DNA of 64,000 bases from Fimbriimonadia bacterium (lineage in GTDB: Bacteria; Armatimonadota; Fimbriimonadia; Fimbriimonadales; JABRVX01). Numbering within the stretch: position 1 is the stretch's first letter; each line of letters starts with the position of its first letter. The DNA is taken from the NCBI GenBank assembly GCA_041483895.1, contig JBGPGO010000010.1, positions 1 to 64,000 on the forward strand, written 5' to 3'. Below are positions 31,396 through 47,755 of this stretch, in pieces. The notes beneath the pieces were generated by a model. It saw only the letters and a list, made by a program, of their open reading frames with translations, made no database searches and had not been told where the DNA came from. The position numbers and the translations under genes were made by a program.

Positions 31396-31426
31396 TCTTG
31401 GAGTGTACCAGCGGCAGAAAAAGAAG

Positions 31427-31480
31427 CCCTCCCCCTTTTCCAGGCGGCCGCCTGGAAAAGGGGGAGGGTTAGGGTGGGGG
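31427..31480. repeat. palindromic repeat, family C
   Basis: ccctcccccttttccaggcg/cgcctggaaaagggggaggg plus ttagggtggggg; recurs at 46696-46815. Confidence 0.75.
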
Positions 31481-31508
31481 TTTTCCGCGTTCGTCCACCG
31501 ACCGCGCT

Positions 31509-33968: not shown

Positions 33969-33972
<4 letters not shown>
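32815..33972 (-). CDS. pgk: phosphoglycerate kinase
   Basis: [47 protein letters not shown]. Confidence 0.98.
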
Positions 33973-34982
<1,010 letters not shown>

Positions 34983-35538
34983 TCCGCCTCCCGATTTCAA
35001 GTCGATCTGAACGCCCGGATTCTACCTCGCGAGCCCCGTTGCCCTTCGGTCATAGAGCCGGAACATTTGCCGGCGTCAAGCAATAATACTATGTTTTTAA
35101 GTTAACCAATGGCCATTGCAGGAAACCCTTTCGGAGGAACGAACTCTCTCTATGTCCTACAGCATTGCCGTGCGAGGCAGGTCGGAACAGGGATTGGTGA
35201 CCGCAGGCACATCGAAACGGCGCAGGCTGGGTACCTCGATTCGCTGCCGTCCCCACTCAACCGTGTTCGCTTAGCTTAATTTTTTGTTGGGGAGAGGTGA
35301 AGGTGTGGGCGGCTTGATTCGATATTCCTGGACTGTATGTTCCAGGCGCGATCATCGCTGGGTTGATGACGCGTTCCCACTCCCACGCAGATCCCCGCGA
35401 CATATTCATAACGGAAGCGATGGCGGATTTCACCACCGATGGCCATTTGTGCGGCAAAGGACAGATTCAGCGCTACCCGTCTTATGGACGGGTTCCGCTA
35501 GAGAAATCAGAAAACATATCAAGAAAGGTGACCAGCAA

Positions 35539-38500
35539 ATGAAACGCATCATGTTAAGCGGCATTCTCTTGGCCGTCTGTGTTGCGGCGCCCGCCGCAAC
35601 AATCACCGTGCCAGGAGACTGGCCCGATGTGCAGGCAGCTGTTATTGCGGCCAACGGGAACGGCGATCCGAGCAATACAATCGTCGTTGCGGCTGGGACT
35701 TGGCCCGCAACATACCAAGTCCACAGCACGAAAAACCTAACAATCATCGGAGCCGGTGCGGCGCTCACGACGATTGTGCCGACCGCAGACACGGGCTCGA
35801 GCGGCGACGCTCGCGGTTGGTTCCTCGCGGACGCCGGGACTTCGCTGACGATATTGAACCTTACGCTGGATGGTTTGGCCGGCACATACCGCGTCAACAT
35901 CGCGGTTCTCTCCTACGCCAACACCCTCGTACGTGGATGCGTGATTAAGAACATCCACACCCTCTACGTCGCCACCCATGATTACGCGGGCCGGGGCGTG
36001 CAAGTCCGGGACAACAATGGAATCATAAACGACTGCACGTTCATGAACATTGGTCGGATCAGCACCTATGTATTTGGCGAGAACGCCACCGTGCTGATAA
36101 CCGGCAACACATTTCTCTGCAAGGGTCAGGGCGACTGGTTGGACTACGCGGTGGAGGTCGAAGGCGATGCCAACGTAAAAGTCAGTCATAACAAAATCTC
36201 GAACTGCCTCGGCGTCGCGGTTTCCGACGGTTCCACGTCGGCGGGCATCCTGGCGACGACCTTCTTTGATGACGTCGGACCCAATGTCACAACCATTGCC
36301 GCGGAGTACAACACGTTCTCCTGCAACTCATATGGAGTCGTTGCTGGATATCCCGGCGGCGACGCCACCATCGCGTCGGTCCATTACAACAACTTCGTAG
36401 GCGGTCAGTACGATGCCGTTTATGCGGATCCGTTGATACCGATGGTCAATGCGGAGAATAATTGGTACGGAGCGGCGGATGGCCCCGGGCCTGTCGGGTC
36501 CGGCAGTGGGGACGGCGTCAGTTTGAACGTCGATTTCACCCCCTGGCAGGTCGCTTCCGTCTCCGAGTGCGGCCTTCAGGTTGACCTCAACGGCACGTAT
36601 ATGATGCCCCACAAGGACTTCGCCGAAGCTGCCACGTCAGTCCCGCTGGTGGCGGAAACAAGCAATGCGGTGTCCGCGGTCGATGCCACGTTCACGCCGT
36701 TTTCGAACGTCGTCAAGCCACCGCGGCTTCTCGCCGCGTCTCTTCTCGGGCGCTCATACGAGTGTGACATTGATCTCAGTGGGAACTGGTTCCCGCTGGA
36801 CAGCGCCAGCATCGGCGCGACCGTCGGAGTAGGAATAACCGGTTCGTACGTGTCGATCAAGAAGAGCGGTGGGAATTTCAATTTCACCCTCCGCAGCACG
36901 GACGGTTCTCTTTCTACGGCGACGTATAGCGACACGACGGGCGCCACGCGCTGGCGTGTTGAAGTGGACGTGGATGGGTCGGGCGCCTCCTCGGCATCCG
37001 TCATACCATTGAATGGCAGCGCGCCTTGGTCGATGAATTCCCTCGGCGGCATCGCCACCACTGTCACTGGTTCGGCATCCTTCTTCGTGACGATGTCTGG
37101 CAACGGCGACGCATCAGCGAAGTCGACTGCCAAGATGAAGGTCTCCGACTTCCTGACCTCGGCGGAGGACAACGTCATGTCGCTCTTCGCCGATGATCCG
37201 TACGTGAAAACGACCGAATCGATCCAGTATCGCTTCGGAATGGCGAACCTATTGCAGAACGTGTTCGGGTTCCAAGCGTTCTTAGATAACCCTTCATTCG
37301 CCGTTCAGGGGGCCCTGGACTCGAGGTCATATAGCTCATCGCCATTCCCTTCCCACATACTTCCGCCCGGGCTGGACATCGATGGCAACGTCGGATTCGG
37401 TATGCCGGCGTTCCTGCTGAGCGGAACACTGACTCATCTCAACTTCAATTCACCGGCAGTTGCCGTTGAAGGATCGGCGAAGCTCACGATCGATGTGGAC
37501 AGTGGCTCTCCATCGTTTGCCCCAACTCGATTCTCGGATGAGTTCGGCGGCAACGTCACACCTACCCGCGAGGCATCAAACACGGTTGTCGTGGACTCCA
37601 CGCTTCCCGTCCTTAGCGGTTTGACGGCGACGGAGGGCGTCACCAATGTTCTAAATGGCGTCAACCCGACGATTCAGGGCACCGTTCACATCTGTGTCAA
37701 CGCTGAGGACCTCGGGGTTGCTCCATCCGGTCTGGCCTGCCAGCCCACGATCAGCATCAACTTCCCGAGCGGTCCGGACGTGCTGAATCAGCCGATGTAT
37801 GCTGATACGGGCAACACCTTCTGCTACGACGCGACGGTCACCGCGGCCTCCGGTTGCGGGACGGCGACCATCACGATCGATGTCTCCGATGACGCGGGCA
37901 ACGCCGCCGCTCCGGCAGCCGGAACCCTCAACCTGAACACTACGCAGGTCGCGGTCACGGTTGAACTCTTCACCTTGACGACCTCCATGACTCGTGGAAT
38001 CCAGTTCGTGCTTGGTGGCACGCTTCTCTCAGGAAATTCACCCGTCACCATCAACAAGGATGTCGTGTTTACGAGTGGCACGGGCACCGTGACGCTGACG
38101 GCCCTCGACGTCCCAATTCCGTGCGGCGCCGCGTTTACGCGCATCAGCGCGAAAGACGTCAAGCACACGCTTCGCCAGAACATCGCTCTGGCAGGAGGCC
38201 CGAGCTTCACCGCTTCGTTCACCGGCTCGGATTCGCTCCTAGGTGGTGACGCGAACGGTGACAACCTAATCGACATTCTCGACTTTGGTGTCTTCGCATC
38301 GCAGTTCGGCTTCGTGCTCGGCGCGAATACACTAGTCGGGTACGTGGGCAACCATGCCGACTTCAGTGGGAACGGAACCGTGTTTACCGAGGACTACACG
38401 TTCATCGCGACGCAGTTCCTAGCCACCGGTGATTTGCCGCCGGACTTCTACGGTCCGCAGGGCACACCGAAGACGACCGCGACGATCGCGGAGCTGGTGA

Positions 38501-38625
38501 AAGCCGGCGTTCCGCTCCTCATGGCTCGGATGATGGACGCCAACCATGACGGCATTGTCACGATGCAGGAGATCTCCAACTTCATCGCCAACGGCGGAGC
38601 CAGCCGAAACGCGATTGGCAAATGA
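35539..38625 (+). CDS. large secreted protein: right-handed beta-helix head, cohesin-like and Ig-like domains, dockerin-like and EF-hand tail
   Basis: Signal peptide MKRIMLSGILLAVCVAAPAA; ITVPGDWPDVQAAV and AENNWYG beta-helix hallmarks; GDANGDNLIDILDFG...DFSGNGTVFTEDY; DANHDGIVTMQE. Confidence 0.8.
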   Translation: MKRIMLSGILLAVCVAAPAATITVPGDWPDVQAAVIAANGNGDPSNTIVVAAGTWPATYQVHSTKNLTIIGAGAALTTIVPTADTGSSGDARGWFLADAGTSLTILNLTLDGLAGTYRVNIAVLSYANTLVRGCVIKNIHTLYVATHDYAGRGVQVRDNNGIINDCTFMNIGRISTYVFGENATVLITGNTFLCKGQGDWLDYAVEVEGDANVKVSHNKISNCLGVAVSDGSTSAGILATTFFDDVGPNVTTIAAEYNTFSCNSYGVVAGYPGGDATIASVHYNNFVGGQYDAVYADPLIPMVNAENNWYGAADGPGPVGSGSGDGVSLNVDFTPWQVASVSECGLQVDLNGTYMMPHKDFAEAATSVPLVAETSNAVSAVDATFTPFSNVVKPPRLLAASLLGRSYECDIDLSGNWFPLDSASIGATVGVGITGSYVSIKKSGGNFNFTLRSTDGSLSTATYSDTTGATRWRVEVDVDGSGASSASVIPLNGSAPWSMNSLGGIATTVTGSASFFVTMSGNGDASAKSTAKMKVSDFLTSAEDNVMSLFADDPYVKTTESIQYRFGMANLLQNVFGFQAFLDNPSFAVQGALDSRSYSSSPFPSHILPPGLDIDGNVGFGMPAFLLSGTLTHLNFNSPAVAVEGSAKLTIDVDSGSPSFAPTRFSDEFGGNVTPTREASNTVVVDSTLPVLSGLTATEGVTNVLNGVNPTIQGTVHICVNAEDLGVAPSGLACQPTISINFPSGPDVLNQPMYADTGNTFCYDATVTAASGCGTATITIDVSDDAGNAAAPAAGTLNLNTTQVAVTVELFTLTTSMTRGIQFVLGGTLLSGNSPVTINKDVVFTSGTGTVTLTALDVPIPCGAAFTRISAKDVKHTLRQNIALAGGPSFTASFTGSDSLLGGDANGDNLIDILDFGVFASQFGFVLGANTLVGYVGNHADFSGNGTVFTEDYTFIATQFLATGDLPPDFYGPQGTPKTTATIAELVKAGVPLLMARMMDANHDGIVTMQEISNFIANGGASRNAIGK

Positions 38626-38635
38626 GATCACCCAA

Positions 38636-38662
38636 AGGCGGCGGGCACTCCGCCCGCCGCCT
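38636..38662 (+). terminator. GC-rich hairpin after the first cassette gene
   Basis: aggcggcgggc-actcc-gcccgccgcct. Confidence 0.55.
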
Positions 38663-38694
38663 AAGGGATAAATTCTAAGGGAGGTAACAGCACA

Positions 38695-41600
38695 ATGCGT
38701 AGTTTTGCGACGATCATCTTAGCCGCGGTGTGCGTCATGGCTTTGGCACAGAAACCCGCGCCCGGGATCGGCAGAGTTCCGGGTGGGCCTGCCAAGCGCC
38801 TGACAATCGCGCTTTCCACCAATCAACCGCGCACACCCGGTCCGATCACCCTCTACGATAACAACAATATTTCAACGGGATTTTATTACTACGATCCGCC
38901 GAATTATGCCGCGGATGATTTGCATATGACAGCGGGTGGAATAATCAATGGGTTCTCATTCGGTTATTACGATCCGCCGACAGACGGTGCCGTGACATCG
39001 GCCGTGATAAGCTTTTGGAACAACGACCCAGCGGACGACCCGCCCACCGGGCCAATCCGAACCTTTACCGTCGGCGTTCCCGCGAACGGAGCATACATCG
39101 TCACAGTAGATCTGTCCGGCGGGTTCGAGTTCACCGCGCCGAAGGACATCTGGATGTCCGTCCAATGGCCGGGCTCCGACGCGGGCTGGCTCATCTTCGG
39201 CCCTCCATCCGTCGGCGCAACCCACGATCTCTTCTATCGGTTTCCGGGCGGCGGGTACTTTTTCTTCGGCGGTAGCCCAAAGGCCAACTTCTGCGCCGCG
39301 ATCTTTGGGGCTCCCTTTGGTCCGTGCCCCCCGTGTGACTACAACAGCACGTTCAACCAGTTGGGAGATCATGAGACGGATGCCTTTGGGTGGTATTACG
39401 CCGTCGTAGGCGGGGTATTTCCGCCGGGCCATACGCTCAATGGAGACAATGCCTCAGGCGGCACGATGCGGTATCTCCTCGATGATTCAATATGGGGAGC
39501 GTATCCGCTCGACACATGGAACAAGGACGACTGGTTCTCCGACAACAGCAGCCTGGCGCTAACCCTAAAGAACGGCCCTTCAATTGTCTACGACAACAAC
39601 GGGCTGGAAACCGCAACATATCCGCCCGGATTCTACACGGCGCCCAATCACGGAGCATACATCGGTTACTCGATGTCCAACAATTTCGACTGGATCTACT
39701 CCGGGTGGTTGATACTGACAGCTCCAACGACCTTTGACCAGTTGAACGGATACTTCGACGAGCGCGGCATCGGTCCGGCGTTCGGGGTACCCGCCTTCAA
39801 TCCCTATTCGCCAAACATTCGGTATCGAATGAACATCTGGTCGAAAGTGACAGGCGACCTGCTGCCATTCAACACGGGCAGCTTTGTGGGCGATGTGTTG
39901 ACGAGCGACATGGGTTATGCTTCCTCCCGAACCGGCGCATTTTCATGGTCGGACACGGGCGTCGATCGCGTCGGCTCATCGCTGACAAGCAACATATTCC
40001 GGCTTAAATACAAGCTGGACTCGCCCGTCACGTTACCGGCAGGTCAATACTACTTCAGCCACGATGCGGTCATCGTCGAATGCGACATGCCCGTGGACTT
40101 GAGCGGGACATACTGCTCCCCTTCCGGCGTCAGTGCCGTCGGCCGGTGCGATGCGACGACCGATCCGGCGGGGGTGACGTACGCGCCGGGGCAGAAGGTG
40201 TACGAAGAAAGCGGCAGCCTACTCGCGCAGGATGCGACGTATACTCCGTTCTCCGATGGCCTCAAGCCCCCTGTTTCGCTCACAGCGGACATGGACGAGC
40301 AGTGCTATGATTACGACGTGGACCTCCACGAACTAAGCAAGTGGAATACGGGGCTGACGACCAACTACTTCACGGGTGAGTATTTCACCGTCGGTCTCGG
40401 CCGAAACGTGCGGTGGACCACGGCGCAAGGTCCCGAGGTGTGGACGACCTTCTGGCGGCCGCAAGGGCAGCCGGGGTTCCGGATTGAGCTGATGAGCGCG
40501 GTTCCGACCGCCCCACCGGCCTCCTATCTTTACTACCAGGCGCCCGCGGACGAGTCCCGATTCCGGATCTGTGTCTGCATCAATGGCGGCCTCATCGCCG
40601 CACAGATCACCGCGCTCAATGGAGCGGGCGCAGGCCTGTCACACATCATCGGACCGATGCCACTCGATGGCGCGGATGACGTTTCGAACACCGGGTTCTT
40701 TGCGGGCTTCCGCAGCTACAGTCTGGAGAACAAAGCGCTGGCTACGATTAGCGGATTATCCACGTGGGCAAAGCCGAATGCTCTCTACCTGTATTGCGAT
40801 GACCCGTATGTGAAACCGGGCGAAACCGCTTACTATCGCATGGGGATGGCCGCACTCGATCAGCCGACGTGGGGATATCAGGCGTTCCTGTCCAATAGCA
40901 ACCCCGCGCTGCAGACGCTGAGTTTCCGCGCTTATACGGGGTGGCCGTTCCCGACGAAAAACATTCCCACCATCACGGACCCGCCGCTTGCCATGTCCGC
41001 GGGAGTTTTTGGCTCGCTGGCATCACCCGTGCAACGCAACACTACCCTTGTGACGCTCGACTATACGACGATCGGCCAAGGCATCGGGTCGCTGGACTTC
41101 CGATCCAACAACCCGCCGACCCGGTTCTCCGATGCGAATGGCAACCCCATCAACCCCTACACACAGAACTCGAACCTGGTGTTGAGCGATGGAGTCGCGC
41201 CGAGTCTCAGCATCGTTTCTGCCAAGCAGGGCGTGACGAACATCATCGGCGGCACGGCCATTCAAGGGCAAGTTGACATTACGGTAAGCGCCGCCGACCT
41301 GGGCGTTGGGATCCCTAACATCGGCTCTGGTCTCGCCTGTCGGCCGGTAATCAAGATTGATTTCTCGCCGCCGGGGCCCGGACCGGAAGACGTGACTTTG
41401 GACACTTTCTCCGGTCCCGACAATCAGTTCATGGCAAAGTACACCATCGTGCCAACGACTCCATGCGGGCCCGCCACAATCACGGCGACGGCGACGGACA
41501 ACGCGGGAAATTCCGCGTCCCAATCCGCCAGCTTCAACGTCAATACCGCCCAGATCACTGTCAACTTATCGCTGACTCTTGTCGGGGCGACGATTCAACG

Positions 41601-42219
41601 AGGCATCGAGTTCACGGTTGGCGGAACATCTGGATTGAATCCCCCGATCACCTTCTGCAAGAATGTGAACTTCGTATCCGGCGCGGCTATGGTTGTGCTC
41701 AATGCCTTCGACGGCATTTTGTGCGGCGCGGCGTTCACGAGAATCGGCGCCAAGGACACCTTGCACACGCTTAACCGCACGGTGGCGTTGGTTCCTCTCG
41801 GCAACAGCCAGTTCACCGCGGCAATGGCGCTCGCCGGTGGGGACGCGAACAACGACAACCTGATCGACATTCTTGATTACGGCGTCTTCGCGTTCAAGTA
41901 CGGTACCAACTACGGGACGGGAGATACGCCTTGTGGAACGCTCCCGCCGCATCCGGACTTCAGCGGCAACGGCATCGTCGGTACGGAGGACTATACGTTC
42001 ATCGCGACGCAGTTCCTTGCTATAGGAGATGCCTCGCCGGGGAACTATGGTCCTATCGGCACACCGAAGACGACGGCGACGATTGCGGAGATCGTCAAAG
42101 CGGGCGTTCCCCGTATGATTGCTCTGCAATTCGACGCAAACAAGGATGGTATCGTTACCATGCGGGAGATCGCGGATTGGCTGGCTCACCAGCCGAAACC
42201 GCGCGAGATACAGCACTGA
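38695..42219 (+). CDS. large secreted protein, paralogous to 35539-38625 over its C-terminal ~700 aa but with a different head
   Basis: Signal peptide; shared VDL.GTY, DAT.TPFS..KPP, DDPYVK, G.QAFL, PTRFSD, SGLAC.P, GDAN.DNLIDILD.G, EDYTFIATQFLA; GGGAGG RBS. Confidence 0.8.
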   Translation: MRSFATIILAAVCVMALAQKPAPGIGRVPGGPAKRLTIALSTNQPRTPGPITLYDNNNISTGFYYYDPPNYAADDLHMTAGGIINGFSFGYYDPPTDGAVTSAVISFWNNDPADDPPTGPIRTFTVGVPANGAYIVTVDLSGGFEFTAPKDIWMSVQWPGSDAGWLIFGPPSVGATHDLFYRFPGGGYFFFGGSPKANFCAAIFGAPFGPCPPCDYNSTFNQLGDHETDAFGWYYAVVGGVFPPGHTLNGDNASGGTMRYLLDDSIWGAYPLDTWNKDDWFSDNSSLALTLKNGPSIVYDNNGLETATYPPGFYTAPNHGAYIGYSMSNNFDWIYSGWLILTAPTTFDQLNGYFDERGIGPAFGVPAFNPYSPNIRYRMNIWSKVTGDLLPFNTGSFVGDVLTSDMGYASSRTGAFSWSDTGVDRVGSSLTSNIFRLKYKLDSPVTLPAGQYYFSHDAVIVECDMPVDLSGTYCSPSGVSAVGRCDATTDPAGVTYAPGQKVYEESGSLLAQDATYTPFSDGLKPPVSLTADMDEQCYDYDVDLHELSKWNTGLTTNYFTGEYFTVGLGRNVRWTTAQGPEVWTTFWRPQGQPGFRIELMSAVPTAPPASYLYYQAPADESRFRICVCINGGLIAAQITALNGAGAGLSHIIGPMPLDGADDVSNTGFFAGFRSYSLENKALATISGLSTWAKPNALYLYCDDPYVKPGETAYYRMGMAALDQPTWGYQAFLSNSNPALQTLSFRAYTGWPFPTKNIPTITDPPLAMSAGVFGSLASPVQRNTTLVTLDYTTIGQGIGSLDFRSNNPPTRFSDANGNPINPYTQNSNLVLSDGVAPSLSIVSAKQGVTNIIGGTAIQGQVDITVSAADLGVGIPNIGSGLACRPVIKIDFSPPGPGPEDVTLDTFSGPDNQFMAKYTIVPTTPCGPATITATATDNAGNSASQSASFNVNTAQITVNLSLTLVGATIQRGIEFTVGGTSGLNPPITFCKNVNFVSGAAMVVLNAFDGILCGAAFTRIGAKDTLHTLNRTVALVPLGNSQFTAAMALAGGDANNDNLIDILDYGVFAFKYGTNYGTGDTPCGTLPPHPDFSGNGIVGTEDYTFIATQFLAIGDASPGNYGPIGTPKTTATIAEIVKAGVPRMIALQFDANKDGIVTMREIADWLAHQPKPREIQH

Positions 42220-42237
42220 TAAGAAACTCGGGAAGGT

Positions 42238-42261
42238 ACCGGGAGCGCTTGCGCTCCCGGT
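42238..42261 (+). terminator. hairpin between cassette genes 2 and 3
   Basis: accgggagcgc-tt-gcgctcccggt. Confidence 0.5.
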
Positions 42262-42289
42262 CACCCTCCAATTTGTGAGGGAGTGACAT

Positions 42290-43255
42290 ATGATGCGAAT
42301 TAGATTTGCCACAATTGCCGGAGGGTTGCTGGCATTGGCCCCATGCTTTGCCAATATCAATCTTGAGCTGCGACCGATCACGCAGACGGCATTTGTTGGG
42401 AACACGGTCAGCGTTGGCCTATACGCCGTTTCCGATAACGGCTCGAATCAACTCACGGCTGCCATGGACGTGGTTGTTATATGGGACCCCACGAAGCTGA
42501 ACCCAATCAGTTTTTCGAACTCCGGGGCCGGATATTCCTGGTTTCAAAGCGGATTCCTTTACCCAGGCGGCGCCAATGCGAGCCTGAACGACGGGGATGC
42601 CGTTTGGACGGCCTTTGCCGCACCGGGAAGCCCCGCGGCCGCTACGCCCGCCGGCTTATTGGTGACGACGTTCAAGTTTCAAGCGATTGCGGCGACCCCC
42701 ACTACAACTGTACAGCTTCGCCGAAGCTACTCCCCCTATATGACAGTCGTCTATGACGGCACGACGCCCAACACCGACGTGACCGGTACGCTGACAAATG
42801 CCGACGTGACCATACTGCAAACTGCCACCGTAAAGGGCCACGTGGATTTGGAGGTATATGAGGGGCCGCCGGGAATCGGCGCGTCGTTGGAATTCCGCCA
42901 ACCCTCAACGATTACGGTCCTTCAGTCGGTACCAATCACCCTTGACGGTGCGGGCAACTATACGGCGCCAGGCGTGATCGTCGGAACGTATGATGTCGCG
43001 GTCAAGTTTTCCAACTGGTTGCGGCAGGTGAGACCAGGGGTCGTGGTCACCAATCCAACGACGTCCGGAGTCGATTTCGCCCTGACCAACGGCGATGCGG
43101 ACGATAGCAATAGGGTCGATCTCCCCGATCTTAATGAAACGTTCGTCAACTTTGCGAGCCCGGGCGGTCCCGGTGATGTCACCCACAACAATTCGGTGGA
43201 CCTAGGGGATCTGAATTTGGAGCTTATCAACTTCGCGATGACCGGCGATTCCTAG
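42290..43255 (+). CDS. secreted cohesin-like + Ig + dockerin-like protein
   Basis: N-domain VGNTVSVGLY...MDVVVIWDPTKL...LLVTTFKFQAI resembles cohesin; C-terminal GDADDSNRVDLPDLN...GDVTHNNSVDLGDLN. Confidence 0.78.
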   Translation: MMRIRFATIAGGLLALAPCFANINLELRPITQTAFVGNTVSVGLYAVSDNGSNQLTAAMDVVVIWDPTKLNPISFSNSGAGYSWFQSGFLYPGGANASLNDGDAVWTAFAAPGSPAAATPAGLLVTTFKFQAIAATPTTTVQLRRSYSPYMTVVYDGTTPNTDVTGTLTNADVTILQTATVKGHVDLEVYEGPPGIGASLEFRQPSTITVLQSVPITLDGAGNYTAPGVIVGTYDVAVKFSNWLRQVRPGVVVTNPTTSGVDFALTNGDADDSNRVDLPDLNETFVNFASPGGPGDVTHNNSVDLGDLNLELINFAMTGDS

Positions 43256-43330: not shown

Positions 43331-43498
43331 GCGTTGGCGCCGGGGTCTGTCAGGTCGTTGACCGCGACCACGTTTAGGTCGAGTACTGAAGGATGGTGCG
43401 CAGGGAGAGCCTCCCGATGCGCCCGAACCCGTTGATGCCGATTTTTGTAGCCATTCCGCCTCCCGATTTTCAGGTGAAATTGTGGCTGGATTCTACCT
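43331..43498 (-). pseudogene. gap: remnant of the gap 5' end and leader (direct repeat of 34852-35027)
   Basis: From ATG 43454 reads MATKIGINGFGRIGRLSLRTILQYST*; after a net 7-nt deletion VVAVNDLTDPGANA continues in another frame; shares the leader and ggattctacct. Confidence 0.9.
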
Positions 43499-43563: not shown

Positions 43564-43591
43564 TTGCAATCCGTTGCTGGCGTGTCATAAT
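43564..43591 (+). promoter_or_regulatory. sigma70-type promoter of the two-gene island operon (leaderless-type)
   Basis: TTGCAA-16 nt-CATAAT with TGn extension, 7 nt before ATG 43599. Confidence 0.5.
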
Positions 43592-43598
43592 TTGGCAA

Positions 43599-44897
43599 AT
43601 GGAAGAACTCCGGACAGGTACATGGCTATTGCATATGGCGAAGCATTTGGGTGCTGTCGACACGGCGTCCGACGAATTGTCTTACTTTGATTGTGCTTAT
43701 GAAGCAGGAAAAGCAGGCAGCCTCCGGGGCCGGATGGCTGCCGATACAGCCGAAATCATTAATTGCGGGCAGTTGAAGGTATTTGCAAGGGCGGCTGGGG
43801 TGCGGAAACCAGAAATCAGTACTTGCCTTCGCCTCCTAAAGAATCAAGGAAGGATTGATTTCACGACCAACTCAGAGGGAGAGCCGGTTGAAGTCGAGGT
43901 ATATATCTTCTCAAGCAAGGACGCGATTGAAACAACCGCCCGCATATTTGGAGTGTCTGATGCTACTGATGAGGAAAGGGGCTCCATCGTTACACTTGAG
44001 GAGACTTTTCACCTACCCCTTACTAAACAGGAGATGTTGAGCAATCTTCATCGTGCTGGTTGTGATGATGAATCTGCGGAATTCTCTGTGGAACTCCAGG
44101 TAGCACTAAGGTTGGTAAAGTCGTCAGATGTTGGAGGGAAGACCCTCTACTTCAATGAATACGCATTTGCAGATGATCCGATGAAGGTAGTAAGGGCTTT
44201 CGCTTCTATGAATCCAGAACTCTTGCGAAATATTCGGGACGTGCAAGATATGCTAAAAGCGCAACCTGGCTATCCGCTGGAATCCTTGAAGAGGAGCTTC
44301 CCGCATCACGCATTGGAAGCGATGGAGGGAATCGGACTGATCGATGTTATGCCAGTTCGCTCACCAAATGGGATTGCAATGTACGTAACGATTCCGCAGT
44401 TAAGGGGCGTGGCTATTGGCGAGCCGTTCCTGTCGGCGGATGTCTTTCACAAAGCCAAGACGTTATTGAACTGTCTGCGATATGGTCAATTCAATTCGAG
44501 ACCGGGGCGAGGCAAAATTGTGGACGATGCGATGCTGCGCGCAATTGTCGCAAAGCTCGTTCGGGGAGAGGAACTTGCTCCTTCGACGGCCGCAGCCGAA
44601 GACTACCGCGTCCTTGAAAAAGATGGGGTCATTGAGACGCGAGAGGATGCTGGGACGATGCGCATTATGAAGTTGAGACAGCTCGAGGTAGGACGGATCG
44701 TTCTTCAAATGCTTGATCATAATGCCGCTCTTCCAGAAGCTGATTACGGACCCTTGACAGACCTGGGTGTTGCGTCGTTCGACAGGGACATTCCAGAAGT
44801 CAGCCGGTCTGCCATTCTGGCTCACAAGAGCAAGGAAGTGATTGAAGCCCACAATCTCATGCTCCAGGCTGTTCGAACAGGAGGTAGATCGCAATGA
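43599..44897 (+). CDS. uncharacterised cytoplasmic protein, possibly tandem winged-helix; candidate defence component A
   Basis: 432-aa ORF in visibly lower-GC DNA; no signal or TM segment; repeated L...G.I/V helix-wing-like patterns. Confidence 0.75.
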   Translation: MEELRTGTWLLHMAKHLGAVDTASDELSYFDCAYEAGKAGSLRGRMAADTAEIINCGQLKVFARAAGVRKPEISTCLRLLKNQGRIDFTTNSEGEPVEVEVYIFSSKDAIETTARIFGVSDATDEERGSIVTLEETFHLPLTKQEMLSNLHRAGCDDESAEFSVELQVALRLVKSSDVGGKTLYFNEYAFADDPMKVVRAFASMNPELLRNIRDVQDMLKAQPGYPLESLKRSFPHHALEAMEGIGLIDVMPVRSPNGIAMYVTIPQLRGVAIGEPFLSADVFHKAKTLLNCLRYGQFNSRPGRGKIVDDAMLRAIVAKLVRGEELAPSTAAAEDYRVLEKDGVIETREDAGTMRIMKLRQLEVGRIVLQMLDHNAALPEADYGPLTDLGVASFDRDIPEVSRSAILAHKSKEVIEAHNLMLQAVRTGGRSQ

Positions 44898-46093
44898 GCC
44901 CAAAAAAGGAAATGCTTGAGAAACGCGGCGATGCAATTGAGTTCGCTGCTGCATCCCTTTTTCAATCACAGGGCTTTCTAGTAAGAAGATCGCTGCCACT
45001 ACGACTTGCTGCAAACCTTGATGCAACAGACGTGGACGTGTTCGGCGTCAAGTTCGTTTATCCATTCCAGCCGGTTCGATTGATCTGTGACTGTAAAGAT
45101 CGTATGAAGTCCCAGGCCATGGAGAGGGTGTTTTGGGCCAAAGGACTCAGTTCATGCATCCAAGCCAGCGAAGTTTATGTCGCTGCGCGGAGCGCTCGGT
45201 CGGAGGTCGTCCAGTATGCGAGTCAACACGGCGTCCGGGTACTGACCGAAGAAGTGCTCAAAGAATTCATTGATTCTGGAGCGATACAGCAGGGACTTGA
45301 ATACAGTCACGCCGATGCCAACGCAATGGGGAGTTTCGTGCCAACGATTAAAGATGGCATAGCGAGAGATCCGCGAGCTAAGAAACTCATCGATGAATCG
45401 GTTCTCATGTTTCATGGGGCAAATCCTTTTGAAGATCTCAACGTATCTATCGATAAAATAGCGCTTTGCGCTGATAGCTTGCTCTCAGTCGGAGCCACTG
45501 ATCCGACGGTGCGATTTGCTTATGCATATGCGATGTGCAACTACATTGTTGTGGTGTCGTTGCAACTACTCTTAATTGCATCTGAAACTCTTTCGATGAC
45601 TCGGCAGGCTCGAAAGAGTTACATGCTTCAGCGATTAACGTATGGGGCAATGAACCGTTCACAGGTCCATGCCATTCTTGATGCAGCAATGAAATTTGCC
45701 CGTCGATCAACGGAGCCGATTAGCAGAAAGACAGATCAAGTTGCATTGCCTTTAGCGGAAAAGCTTTTCCAGCCGCCACCGTACGCTGACGATGTCGTGG
45801 GGCTGGTTGAACGCGCCATCGCCAATCCGAAGATGTACCATTCTCTACCTGCGGCCTTGGACTTTGTTTTGTTTGACGGAGGGCTATTCAAAGGGGGATT
45901 TGACGGTCAGATGTTTGCCAGAGTGTTTACAACGAGCCCAGGATCTGACGTAATAAAGGCCACTAAGAATGTATTCGCGTTTCTCAAACAACATACGCCT
46001 TTTACACAGAGCATGGTGATGCCGACGGTCGATTTGCCCAATGAAGCGGTCTCGAAAGATCCGGTGGCCCCATTACCCGGGCTGGGAATCTAG
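44894..46093 (+). CDS. PD-(D/E)xK restriction-endonuclease-like protein; candidate defence component B
   Basis: GDAIEFAAASLFQSQGFLV...TDVDVFGVKF...LICDCKD fits E...D...(D/E)xK; ATGA overlap with the upstream gene. Confidence 0.7.
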   Translation: MSPKKEMLEKRGDAIEFAAASLFQSQGFLVRRSLPLRLAANLDATDVDVFGVKFVYPFQPVRLICDCKDRMKSQAMERVFWAKGLSSCIQASEVYVAARSARSEVVQYASQHGVRVLTEEVLKEFIDSGAIQQGLEYSHADANAMGSFVPTIKDGIARDPRAKKLIDESVLMFHGANPFEDLNVSIDKIALCADSLLSVGATDPTVRFAYAYAMCNYIVVVSLQLLLIASETLSMTRQARKSYMLQRLTYGAMNRSQVHAILDAAMKFARRSTEPISRKTDQVALPLAEKLFQPPPYADDVVGLVERAIANPKMYHSLPAALDFVLFDGGLFKGGFDGQMFARVFTTSPGSDVIKATKNVFAFLKQHTPFTQSMVMPTVDLPNEAVSKDPVAPLPGLGI

Positions 46094-46201
46094 GCAATCA
46101 ACCTGACTTTGCAGTTCGGCTGCAGTCGAATTCAAGTTCTGAGGTTAGCCGGTCGGTCAATATCGATATCTCGACACTAATAGACGTCATCCTTAACCAC
46201 G

Positions 46202-46243
46202 GTAGGCTTCTCATGAATCTGCAACAATTCATGAGAAGCCTAC
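46202..46243. terminator. perfect 17-bp inverted repeat downstream of both the nuclease gene and the tRNA-like element
   Basis: gtaggcttctcatgaat-ctgcaaca-attcatgagaagcctac. Confidence 0.65.
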
Positions 46244-46245
46244 TG

Positions 46246-46330
46246 AGGAAGCGGCGGGATTCGAACCCGCGAGGCCTTTCGACCTAGACGATTTTCAGTC
46301 GCCCGCCATAAACCACTCGGCCACGCTTGG
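46246..46330 (-). tRNA. tRNA-like element: Ser-type long-variable-arm body, anticodon GAA, mismatched acceptor end (probable pseudo-tRNA)
   Basis: CCAAGCG TG GCC-GAGTGGTTTAT-GGC G GGCGA-CTGAAAA-TCGTC T AGGTC-GAAA-GGCCT C GCGGG-TTCGAAT-CCCGC CGCTTCC T. Confidence 0.75.
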
Positions 46331-46508
46331 GATAACCTCTGGACATCCCGAGATTGACCTCGATGGCAACCGTATTATACCTAATTCGTCATTCCATTTT
46401 GGGGCATCCATCCGGCGTGAACGGATGAGCCCATTACTCGCCCTATGCAAGGAAACCTGCAACGTCATCGTTGGCGGTTTCCGAAGAAGTGTGGAACCAG
46501 TTAACCTG

Positions 46509-46682: not shown

Positions 46683-46695
46683 TCGAGAAGAAGAA

Positions 46696-46815
46696 CCCCC
46701 ACCCAACCCTCCCCCTTTCCCAGGCTAACGCCTGAAAAAAGGGGAGGGCTTCTTCCAGACCCACTACCCAAACCCCTCCGCCTTTTCCAGGCTGACGCCT
46801 GAAAAAAGGGGAGGG
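46696..46815. repeat. palindromic repeat family C (2 tandem copies)
   Basis: ccctccccctttcccaggctaacgcctgaaaaaaggggaggg and ccctccgccttttccaggctgacgcctgaaaaaagggggaggg-like copy; matches 31427-31480. Confidence 0.75.
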
Positions 46816-46900
46816 CTTTTTCCTTTTCCCCAGCCCTTCGGCAATCTAACGGCAGGCTGGAGCACGAACATCTTCGCGCCTCAGATATAATCCGCGCAGT

Positions 46901-47755
46901 ATGGCCATTGGCAAGCAAATTCGTCTCAACAGGCTCTTCGCTCACCCATCCGGTCGGTTCTGTTCGGTCGCCGTTGACCATTTCGTGGGCTATGCGCATG
47001 GCATGCCCGAGGGTCTGATCGACCTCCGCAAGGCGTTGTCCGCCATTGTCGCAGCACGTCCGTGCGCCGTGACGATGCAAAAGGGCACGGCGCTCACCTG
47101 CTGGGCGCCCCACGCGGGCAAAGTTCCGATGATCATCCAATCCGGCTGTTTCACCCCCGACGATGGCATCATCGAGACACTGAGCAACCCGGAAGAGTGC
47201 GTTCGATTGGGTGCGGATGCGATCGCGATTGCCATCGGCGTGCGGGGCCCTAACGAGGGCCGATTTATCAAGATTCTTTCCGACGGGGTGGATGCCGCAT
47301 CGCGATTCGATCTGCCTGTCATCGCGCACATCTATCCGCGTGAGTTCAGCCGGCAAGATGCCAGCGTTACCAGGGACGCGGAAGGCCGGCAAGATGCCAG
47401 CGTTACGTTAGGCGGCAAGATTGTGCACGATCCGGACAACATCGCCTGGGCCGTGCGCGTCGGCATCGAGTGCGGCGCGGACGTGATCAAGGTGGCCTAC
47501 ACGGGCGACGTGGCCTCATTCTCTCAAATAGTGGCCTGTTCCCCCGTGCCGGTCGTCGCCGCCGGCGGGCCGCAGACCGACACGTTGGAACAAGCCTTGC
47601 AAGCCATGTCGGAGGTTGTGGAGAGCGGCGCGAAGGGCGCGACGATCGGCCGCAATGTCTGGGGACATGGAGACATCGGCAAGGCGCTGCGAGCCTTCAA
47701 AGCTGTGATTCTTGATCGAATTTCGCCCGCCGAGGCGATCTCGCATGCCGGATAA
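46901..47755 (+). CDS. class I aldolase (DhnA/LsrF family) with an in-frame repeat insertion
   Basis: GKQIRLNRLF, VAVDH, GADVIKVAYTGD, VVAAGGP, GATIGRNVW. Confidence 0.88.
   Translation: MAIGKQIRLNRLFAHPSGRFCSVAVDHFVGYAHGMPEGLIDLRKALSAIVAARPCAVTMQKGTALTCWAPHAGKVPMIIQSGCFTPDDGIIETLSNPEECVRLGADAIAIAIGVRGPNEGRFIKILSDGVDAASRFDLPVIAHIYPREFSRQDASVTRDAEGRQDASVTLGGKIVHDPDNIAWAVRVGIECGADVIKVAYTGDVASFSQIVACSPVPVVAAGGPQTDTLEQALQAMSEVVESGAKGATIGRNVWGHGDIGKALRAFKAVILDRISPAEAISHAG
47349..47406. repeat. two identical 22-bp REP-like palindromes inside the aldolase gene
   Basis: gccggcaagatgccagcgttac at 47349-47370 and 47385-47406 (36-bp period), encoding RQDASVT twice. Confidence 0.8.

Follow-up and report, generated by a model that had tools for sequence, protein, structure and literature searches.

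A strictly paired two-gene family joining a predicted four-winged-helix protein to a PD-(D/E)xK-type nuclease, and its likely place among anti-phage systems

The A/B locus and its homologues

The DNA analyzed is a stretch of 64,000 nucleotides from a Fimbriimonadia bacterium (assembly GCA_041483895.1, contig JBGPGO010000010.1, positions 1 to 64,000 of the forward strand), hereafter called the window. Its plus strand carries two adjacent genes, A (43599-44897, 432 amino acids) and B (44894-46093, 399 amino acids), which a first-pass annotation had proposed, from the letters alone, to form an undescribed defence system composed of a sensor or scaffold and a restriction-like nuclease. The stop codon of A and the start codon of B are joined by an ATGA overlap at 44894-44897, as that annotation had read them. 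A longer frame of 471 amino acids opening with GTG is not the start of A, since the homologues share the methionine of the 432-residue form. The pair lies in the chromosome, with no satellite around it, and gene A is single-copy in the genome. Contigs from public DNA runs, one of them possibly made from the source sample, span the A/B junction and that of B with a tRNA-like element downstream, with zero differences.

The A/B segment had been described as visibly AT-rich, and this was borne out by its GC content of 50.2%, compared to a genome mean of 57.9%; among 1560 tiles of 2.5 kb along the genome, only one was equally low. GC at third codon positions was 0.50–0.51 in the segment versus 0.67–0.73 in the two flanking genes measured. 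So, by its GC content, the DNA of the pair is foreign-looking. Gene A found no match in any of the 40 same-family or same-order genomes searched, which makes the pair probably a horizontal arrival. In agreement with the earlier reading, no methyltransferase or integrase was apparent among the open reading frames (ORFs) of the 36–54 kb region, as judged by eye and not by profile scan.

A promoter of its own had also been ascribed to the operon. The promoter-like site TTGCAA-16-TGnCATAAT is indeed present (43564-43591, plus strand; 9 of 12 matches), 7 nt 5′ of the ATG of A, but such sites were not commoner than expected by chance (2 overlapping calls versus 2.8 ± 1.4 in shuffled sequences). Its position 7 nt from the ATG, together with the lack of a Shine-Dalgarno sequence, means that the start of A may be leaderless. 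A leaderless start as a trait of the family was rejected, as it was found in 8 of 72 cases against a background of 8 of 72.

The homologue search yielded 60 proteins with A as query and 13 with B, the window's own being counted in each. The A profile matched 677 clusters (50% identity) at E ≤ 0.001, and 200 of these clusters reached 1e-30. A pattern-based scan of GTDB, which gives a lower bound, led to 106 confirmed loci, of which the best 80 were fetched. The treatment of the two genes as one unit was upheld in both directions. A B-profile match lay directly 3′ of A in 79 of the 80 loci, mostly overlapping or abutting it, and in the sole exception the contig ends 42 nt after A; conversely, A was found upstream of B in all ten metagenome loci reached from B, one of them cut by the contig end. 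The same order was observed in the three IMG/VR contigs and in all eight loci viewed among 13 plasmid records, and both distant A homologues checked (Streptomyces and Pseudarthrobacter) were paired with B. GenBank phages gave no match with two queries. The pairwise identities of A and those of B were correlated (r = 0.96 over 68 loci, which as kin are not independent). No A homologue of 791–2255 amino acids occurred among 7999 candidates, which is weak evidence that A-B fusions do not exist.

Clustering of 1023 neighbouring ORFs from the 80 loci revealed neither a conserved third gene nor a methyltransferase family conserved beside A/B. The commonest neighbour cluster occurred in 12 of the 80 loci and is tyrosine-recombinase-like by reading of its sequence. 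A quick tree was built from 68 rows, corresponding to the window and 67 loci with both genes whole, broken or cut loci being left out. It covers 17 phylum-level groups, two of them archaeal, with the phyla interleaved, and the family can be aligned end to end over all of them. The A protein of the window groups loosely, on a long branch, with copies from Bacillota.

Damaged copies were also found. A is broken and B whole in three of the 80 GTDB loci (L023, L066 and L078; loci are numbered with the prefix L) and in a plasmid copy where A is split by ISVa2 (L112), A is whole and B broken in one locus (L049), and both genes are broken in three (L013, L014 and L061). These copies bear on the possibility of a toxin-antitoxin or addiction module, in which A would restrain a toxic nuclease B so as to stabilise a satellite, plasmid or island, with phage defence being secondary. 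The antitoxin-first gene order and the translational coupling are those of such modules, A/B is frequent on satellites and on plasmids (the 13 records), and A has helix-turn-helix folds in its model. Yet a broken A with a whole B was seen four times and the reverse once, a weak argument, as B may be silenced by polarity in such copies or the breaks may be errors in the assembly of metagenome-derived genomes, and typical antitoxins are much smaller and less conserved than A. On balance, an addiction module seems improbable.

Predicted structures of the two proteins

The AlphaFold2 model of B, obtained with 85 sequences, reached a pLDDT of 90.5. It is composed of a Mrr_cat-like PD-(D/E)xK nuclease domain (residues ~10–145) followed by an all-helical domain. 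The best fold match of the nuclease domain was the Mrr-like protein AF1548 (1Y88), with Z 12.9 and rmsd 2.4 over 114 aligned residues. Twelve chains matched at Z ≥ 8, and the top rows were all of the restriction-endonuclease core fold; Foldseek gave E 3.6e-4. Other fold matches were VC1899, Can2/Card1, NucS and AspBHI (the last three at Z 9–11), PaqCI, FokI and BspD6I. Residues E16, D46, D48 and K68 were invariant in the 85 members of the family, while position 66 was occupied by D in 78 of them and by E in the other 7. This invariance indicates that the catalytic residues of B are under selection. By its modelled fold and its E...D...(D/E)xK pattern, B is a member of the PD-(D/E)xK (Mrr_cat-like) superfamily, as the first-pass annotation had supposed, and cleavage is predicted. 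Pfam Mrr_cat was matched by 8 of 85 members at E ≤ 0.01, and in the ESM Atlas Mrr_cat appeared in 26% of one cluster. The helical C-terminal half is poorly conserved and gave no fold match above Z 7.3 in the search with the whole chain.

Some homologues of B depart from this layout. The Paenibacillus/Cohnella-type proteins (L003, L004, L009, L018, L099 and L100) are longer, with ~530–600 amino acids, and the two of the long proteins that were aligned bear a C-terminal extension of ~130 amino acids that ends in a conserved helical segment and is perhaps an extra domain. The homologue encoded by the Pseudarthrobacter plasmid pACHL02 (L114, 6037-7257) is annotated as a 'response regulator transcription factor', a label that is likely wrong, as the nuclease motif is retained and the B profile is matched with E 1e-26. 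In two Burkholderia glumae plasmids, the match is confined to residues 43–137 of B.

The AlphaFold2 model of A, based on 58 sequences, was of lower confidence (pLDDT 76.8, pTM 0.75). It displays a unit of three helices and a beta hairpin that is repeated four times and is followed by a linker and two C-terminal helices. Accordingly, the repeats were read as a tandem array of four winged helices (wH), predicted at residues ~25–105 (wH1), 120–190 (wH2), 200–268 (wH3) and 278–375 (wH4) and followed by a basic, helical C-terminal tail; tandem winged helices had been suggested as a possibility in the earlier annotation. A direct winged-helix match was obtained for wH2 (Z 8.4, residues 121–192) and a partial one for wH1. 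In a whole-chain Foldseek search, the best match was RPC62 (E 1.7e-4, TM 0.16), and SelB and ESCRT-II also appeared, with low TM-scores. A viral fold search yielded nothing at E ≤ 0.001.

The most conserved part of A in the 82 sequences compared is wH4, with a mean column conservation of 0.58 versus 0.44 for wH1–3 and 0.41 for the tail. Its conserved residues are D281, K287, G296, R304-G305, A331 and D335-Y336, to which P399-E400 and R426 are added in the tail. The median net charge in the same sequences was −2 for wH1, −7.5 for wH2, −3 for wH3, +3 for wH4 and +5 for the tail. No nucleotide-binding or NTPase domain was seen in the model of A, nor did A or B match any P-loop family among the PADLOC, Pfam and NCBIfam profiles. 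A recognised signal-binding or repeat sensor domain was not seen in the model of A either.

Several weak matches of A were set aside. Generic winged-helix similarity was taken to explain those to SpoIIID and to the Crp helix-turn-helix, as well as a profile match to a uniporter domain from Dictyostelium (E 0.005). For A, the ESM Atlas returned unnamed clusters, with DpdG at just 0.76.

Genomic context, catalogue status and proposed role

Defence-gene enrichment near homologues had been put forward as a check on the defence reading. Copies do occur in defence hotspots. Seven of 5426 complete E. coli genomes matched in a DNA search started from a Vibrio copy, which gives a lower bound, and in the three E. 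coli loci viewed the int-psu interval of a P4-like satellite inserted at ssrA contained A/B as its sole cargo. According to PMC9122126, 7 of 19 systems cloned from this int-psu hotspot were anti-phage, and PMC13586616 reports protection by six of eight random unknown P4 loci. On a Bacillus mycoides plasmid, A/B has an ABC-three-component (Lamassu-type) operon on one side and thsAB (Thoeris) on the other, and other plasmid copies adjoin recombinases, transposases or methylases. When the nearest gene on each side was compared with PADLOC (E ≤ 1e-12), 25 of 149 matched, LmuA/LmuB, restriction-modification subunits, HmaC, IetS and CapP being included. The distribution of A/B is patchy, and copies reside on mobile elements and in defence hotspots.

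Other arrangements deserve mention. In L004 (8293-9251), a helix-turn-helix gene and a gene for a CapP-like metallopeptidase (PADLOC capP, E 3e-33) lie upstream of A/B, and genes of ImmA/IrrE type precede the pair in L025 and L114 too, which hints at expression induced by DNA damage. In L100 (6012-11031), a prophage-like contig of Paenibacillus, A/B follows what by sequence reading is apparently a gene for the terminase large subunit.

A and B accompany each other in many groups of bacteria and archaea and are present in an E. coli anti-virus hotspot, which makes it likely that they constitute an unnamed anti-phage system. A role of the pair in defence is very probable, when part of the toxin-antitoxin case is counted in its favour.

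The family was found to be without a name in the catalogues searched. With PADLOC-DB 2.0.0, the best match of A had E 0.0078, in 1 of 82 members, and hit no named system, while the best match of B had E 6.5e-4, in 2 of 85 members, and was to a generic PD_DExK profile (1XMX type); the models of Aditi and Dazbog are presumably included in this release. NCBIfam 20.0 matched none of the 82 A and none of the 85 B members at E ≤ 0.001, Pfam gave no significant match to A in a scan of the window's protein alone, and single-sequence searches of A and B against PADLOC, Pfam, NCBIfam and PDB sequences gave nothing significant.

The term 'undescribed' used in the first-pass annotation holds as to a name in PADLOC 2.0 or NCBIfam, but two published lists of candidates already include its E. 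coli homologue, without a name. One is Table S1B of Rousset 2022 (PMC9122126), in which the E. coli homologue is the unnamed system 53, labelled 'DUF1887/Mrr_cat', with 22 occurrences and the remark 'Likely a nuclease'. Its proteins WP_052249889/WP_039023249 and WP_039023248 match the A profile with E 1.7e-144 and the B profile with E 1.1e-114, respectively. Six motifs did not find system 53 in the tested-system tables S2A and S2B, as far as these are available, of the same paper. The other list is that of DefensePredictor (PMC13092281), which scores the E. coli B protein as a 'predicted novel defense gene' with log-odds 11.5. The protein was absent, by accession or locus tag, from the other nine DefensePredictor files accessible, where tested units may bear other identifiers. 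The six systems named in PMC13586616 differ from A/B, as judged by the descriptions given in its accessible part. No paper describing or experimentally testing A/B was found in the literature within reach; recent DefenseFinder models and subscription papers lie beyond it, so prior naming is possible. In summary, the A/B family is real, widespread, unnamed and already present in candidate catalogues, its new part being the four-winged-helix subunit.

Concerning known systems, system 53 contains both families at full length and in the same gene order as A/B. It belongs to another clade than the chromosomal, satellite-free copy of the window, which is near those of Bacillota, and in the accessible tables it is a catalogue row without a name or an analysis of A. 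The type IV or modification-dependent enzymes (DpnI and the winged-helix fusions described in PMC11037411; Mrr; MspJI/AspBHI) are like A/B in combining a PD-(D/E)xK nuclease with a winged helix in the absence of a cognate methyltransferase. Compared to these fusions, the reader would be in A/B a separate chain of ~430 amino acids with four predicted winged helices, and B adds a helical domain. The type IV enzymes are single chains with one winged helix, whereas A and B were separate genes at all the loci seen.

The FokI-type IIS enzymes and the heterodimeric BspD6I also resemble A/B, as they contain a helix-turn-helix or winged-helix reader and a separate PD-(D/E)xK cutter, and B matched FokI with Z 8.1 and BspD6I with Z 8.0 and 7.6. 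The likeness extends to the winged helix that is part of the FokI binding domain, according to PMC11037411. This brings in the possibility of a heterodimeric, site-specific enzyme akin to type II, with self-protection afforded by a host or neighbouring methylase or by the rarity of the site; type II methyltransferases do adjoin A/B in L004 and L043. However, no methyltransferase family is conserved alongside the pair, the E. coli hotspot contains just the two genes in the three loci viewed, and an alignment from end to end over 17 phylum-level groups is unlike most type II enzymes. A type II-like enzyme is thus very improbable. A/B is encoded by two genes and not by one chain as FokI. The FokI recognition domain was not among the top 50 fold matches of A, which tells neither for nor against a kinship. 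It can be said that A/B resembles a split FokI or a split type IV enzyme, yet belongs to neither class, as it lacks the methylase of the former and the single-chain fusion of the latter.

The likeness to other systems is more limited. The signal-activated nucleases Card1/Can2 and Cap4 have a fold in common with the nuclease domain of B, but no CARF or SAVED match was found in the C-terminal half of B, and no cyclase or CRISPR gene is conserved beside A/B. The winged-helix arrays of RPC62, the SelB C-terminus, ESCRT-II and Wadjet JetA/B recall that of A with TM ~0.15, which means shared building blocks only. Unlike Wadjet, the SMC-kleisin-KITE complexes or the STAND systems, A/B has no SMC or P-loop ATPase partner and no conserved third gene.

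The mechanism that we prefer, although with somewhat less than even confidence, is that of a methylase-free A:B nuclease in which A directs B onto invader DNA. A would bind B in a putative A:B complex and aim its restriction-type nuclease domain at the DNA of an invading phage (or plasmid). Because no protective methylase travels with the pair, self and non-self would be told apart by a feature of the invader DNA, either the modification of a base or a structure, for example a DNA end or fork. The basic, conserved wH4 and the C-terminal tail of A may serve as the surface for DNA reading or for docking of B, while the acidic wH1–3 could act as a scaffold. The pair would then resemble a FokI or Mrr enzyme whose reader and cutter are separate subunits, and would act without ATP.

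Several observations weigh against this mechanism or against the defence role on which it depends. The enrichment of defence genes next to A/B was weak and the systematic test borderline (25 of 149 adjacent genes versus 13 of 149 in the far flanks, Fisher p 0.055; 20 versus 11, p 0.13, after removing non-specific matches). The control genes came from the same loci, at a distance of 5.5 kb or more, 149 being drawn from 157, and were often in the same island; neighbour ORFs were called mechanically and trimmed to 470 amino acids, and the comparison is one within the same loci, not genome-wide. The window's own pair lies outside any defence island, with no recognisable defence neighbours. Two unknown P4 loci, which may or may not include the A/B pair, gave no protection according to PMC13586616. 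As to the proteins, wH3 and wH4 were taken from the secondary-structure pattern and the whole-chain Foldseek search, without individual matches, and the net-acidic character of wH1–3 fits better with protein binding than with DNA binding. Finally, the signal-activated, non-specific fold relatives of B (Card1/Can2, and Cap4 lower) fit abortive infection equally well.

In abortive infection, A would sense a phage protein or a stalled replication structure and switch on B, and the ensuing non-specific degradation of DNA would halt the cell. Apart from the acidic wH1–3, it is favoured by the closeness of B to Can2/Card1/Cdn1 (Z 8–11) and Cap4, by the weak resemblance of A to the tandem winged-helix arrays of RPC62, ESCRT-II and ScpB, which are largely protein-interaction scaffolds, and by the CapH/CapP-like regulator pair preceding the operon in L004, while the defence context favours it as much as a directed nuclease. 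Against it stand the lack of a recognised signal-binding, NTPase or repeat sensor domain in the model of A, the basic charge of wH4 and the C-terminal tail, with wH4 as the most conserved part, and the absence of effector swapping, as the same nuclease was beside A in every locus seen. Abortive infection seems rather unlikely, though clearly ahead of the other rivals.

The borderline enrichment also speaks for a non-defence function, with the pair helping a mobile element to process or repair its DNA, or with A as only a transcription regulator of B. The fold of B is also that of NucS/EndoMS, XisH and SfsA, and the tyrosine-recombinase-like cluster of 12 loci points in the same direction. Nevertheless, A/B fills an interchangeable defence slot of P4-like satellites, its neighbours vary, it is absent from relatives of the window's genome and it is carried by unrelated types of elements. 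This was considered the least probable explanation.

Beyond the directed nuclease preferred here, it may be proposed, still more tentatively, that A/B represents a new class of immune nucleases of bacteria and archaea that need neither ATP, methylase nor signal, the four-winged-helix array, a layout familiar from the eukaryotic RPC62 and ESCRT-II, being a stand-alone receptor that licenses a Mrr-like cutter. If this were true, a receptor for foreign DNA or for a phage replication structure would be a new route of self/non-self discrimination. It is worth noting that a cross-domain family without a Pfam, NCBIfam or PADLOC name fills a proven anti-phage slot of E. coli, and that the existence of a native E. 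coli copy makes the function of A/B testable at once. The question raised is how a nuclease without a methylase, an ATPase or a second-messenger domain spares the host DNA. An answer could reveal a new type of sensor and perhaps yield a tool that cuts DNA according to its modification or structure, but the surprise is limited by the common effector fold and the prior catalogue entries.

Elements flanking the pair in the window

The AT-rich segment had been placed between a gap remnant and a tRNA-like element, and both neighbours were recovered. On the left, a truncated duplicate of gap (43331-43469, minus strand, 139 nt) comprises the 5′ end of the gene with its start codon and ribosome-binding region. 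It is 88% identical, over 146 columns, to positions 34852-34997 of the intact gap gene (33969-35000), and it is not part of the A/B system. The two copies of the gap 5′ end, 8.5 kb apart, bracket three large genes for secreted or surface proteins (35284-43255) that have C-terminal repeats in common, which suggests that this block arrived via duplication or insertion at the start of gap.

On the right, the tRNA-like element (46245-46330, minus strand) is a degenerate one of serine type, with a long variable arm and a GAA anticodon. Its top three acceptor pairs are broken and it has no CCA. ARAGORN labels it tRNA-Phe, from the anticodon, while its nearest relative in the genome is tRNA-Ser(GGA), with 78% identity over 76 nt; one normal tRNA-Phe and four tRNA-Ser genes are present elsewhere in the genome. 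The serine-type arm, the kinship with tRNA-Ser(GGA), the broken acceptor, the missing CCA and the normal genes elsewhere indicate that the element is probably a relic. A GAA anticodon on a serine-type body is one base from that of Ser(GGA), and such a tRNA, if charged, would misread Phe codons. On the same strand, a TATAAT motif lies upstream (~46373-46378). The element has its 3′ end towards gene B, an arrangement known from tRNA integration sites, and neither an att repeat of the element nor an empty-site allele was found. As a component of the A/B system the element was rejected, since tRNA or tmRNA genes, of varied types, occurred in the fetched flanks of 17 of the 80 loci. Between B and this element there is a 22-bp inverted repeat (46197-46248; 91% complementary, 8-nt loop), likely a shared terminator hairpin.

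Farther downstream, a palindromic repeat of ~60 nt (CCCTCCCCCTTT...AAAAGGGGAGGG) is located at 46690-46823 and again at 31421-31485, with at least seven further copies in the genome, and is REP/MITE-like. The class I aldolase-like gene that follows (46901-47755) contains two exact 22-nt copies 36 nt apart (47349-47406), which amount to an in-frame insertion.

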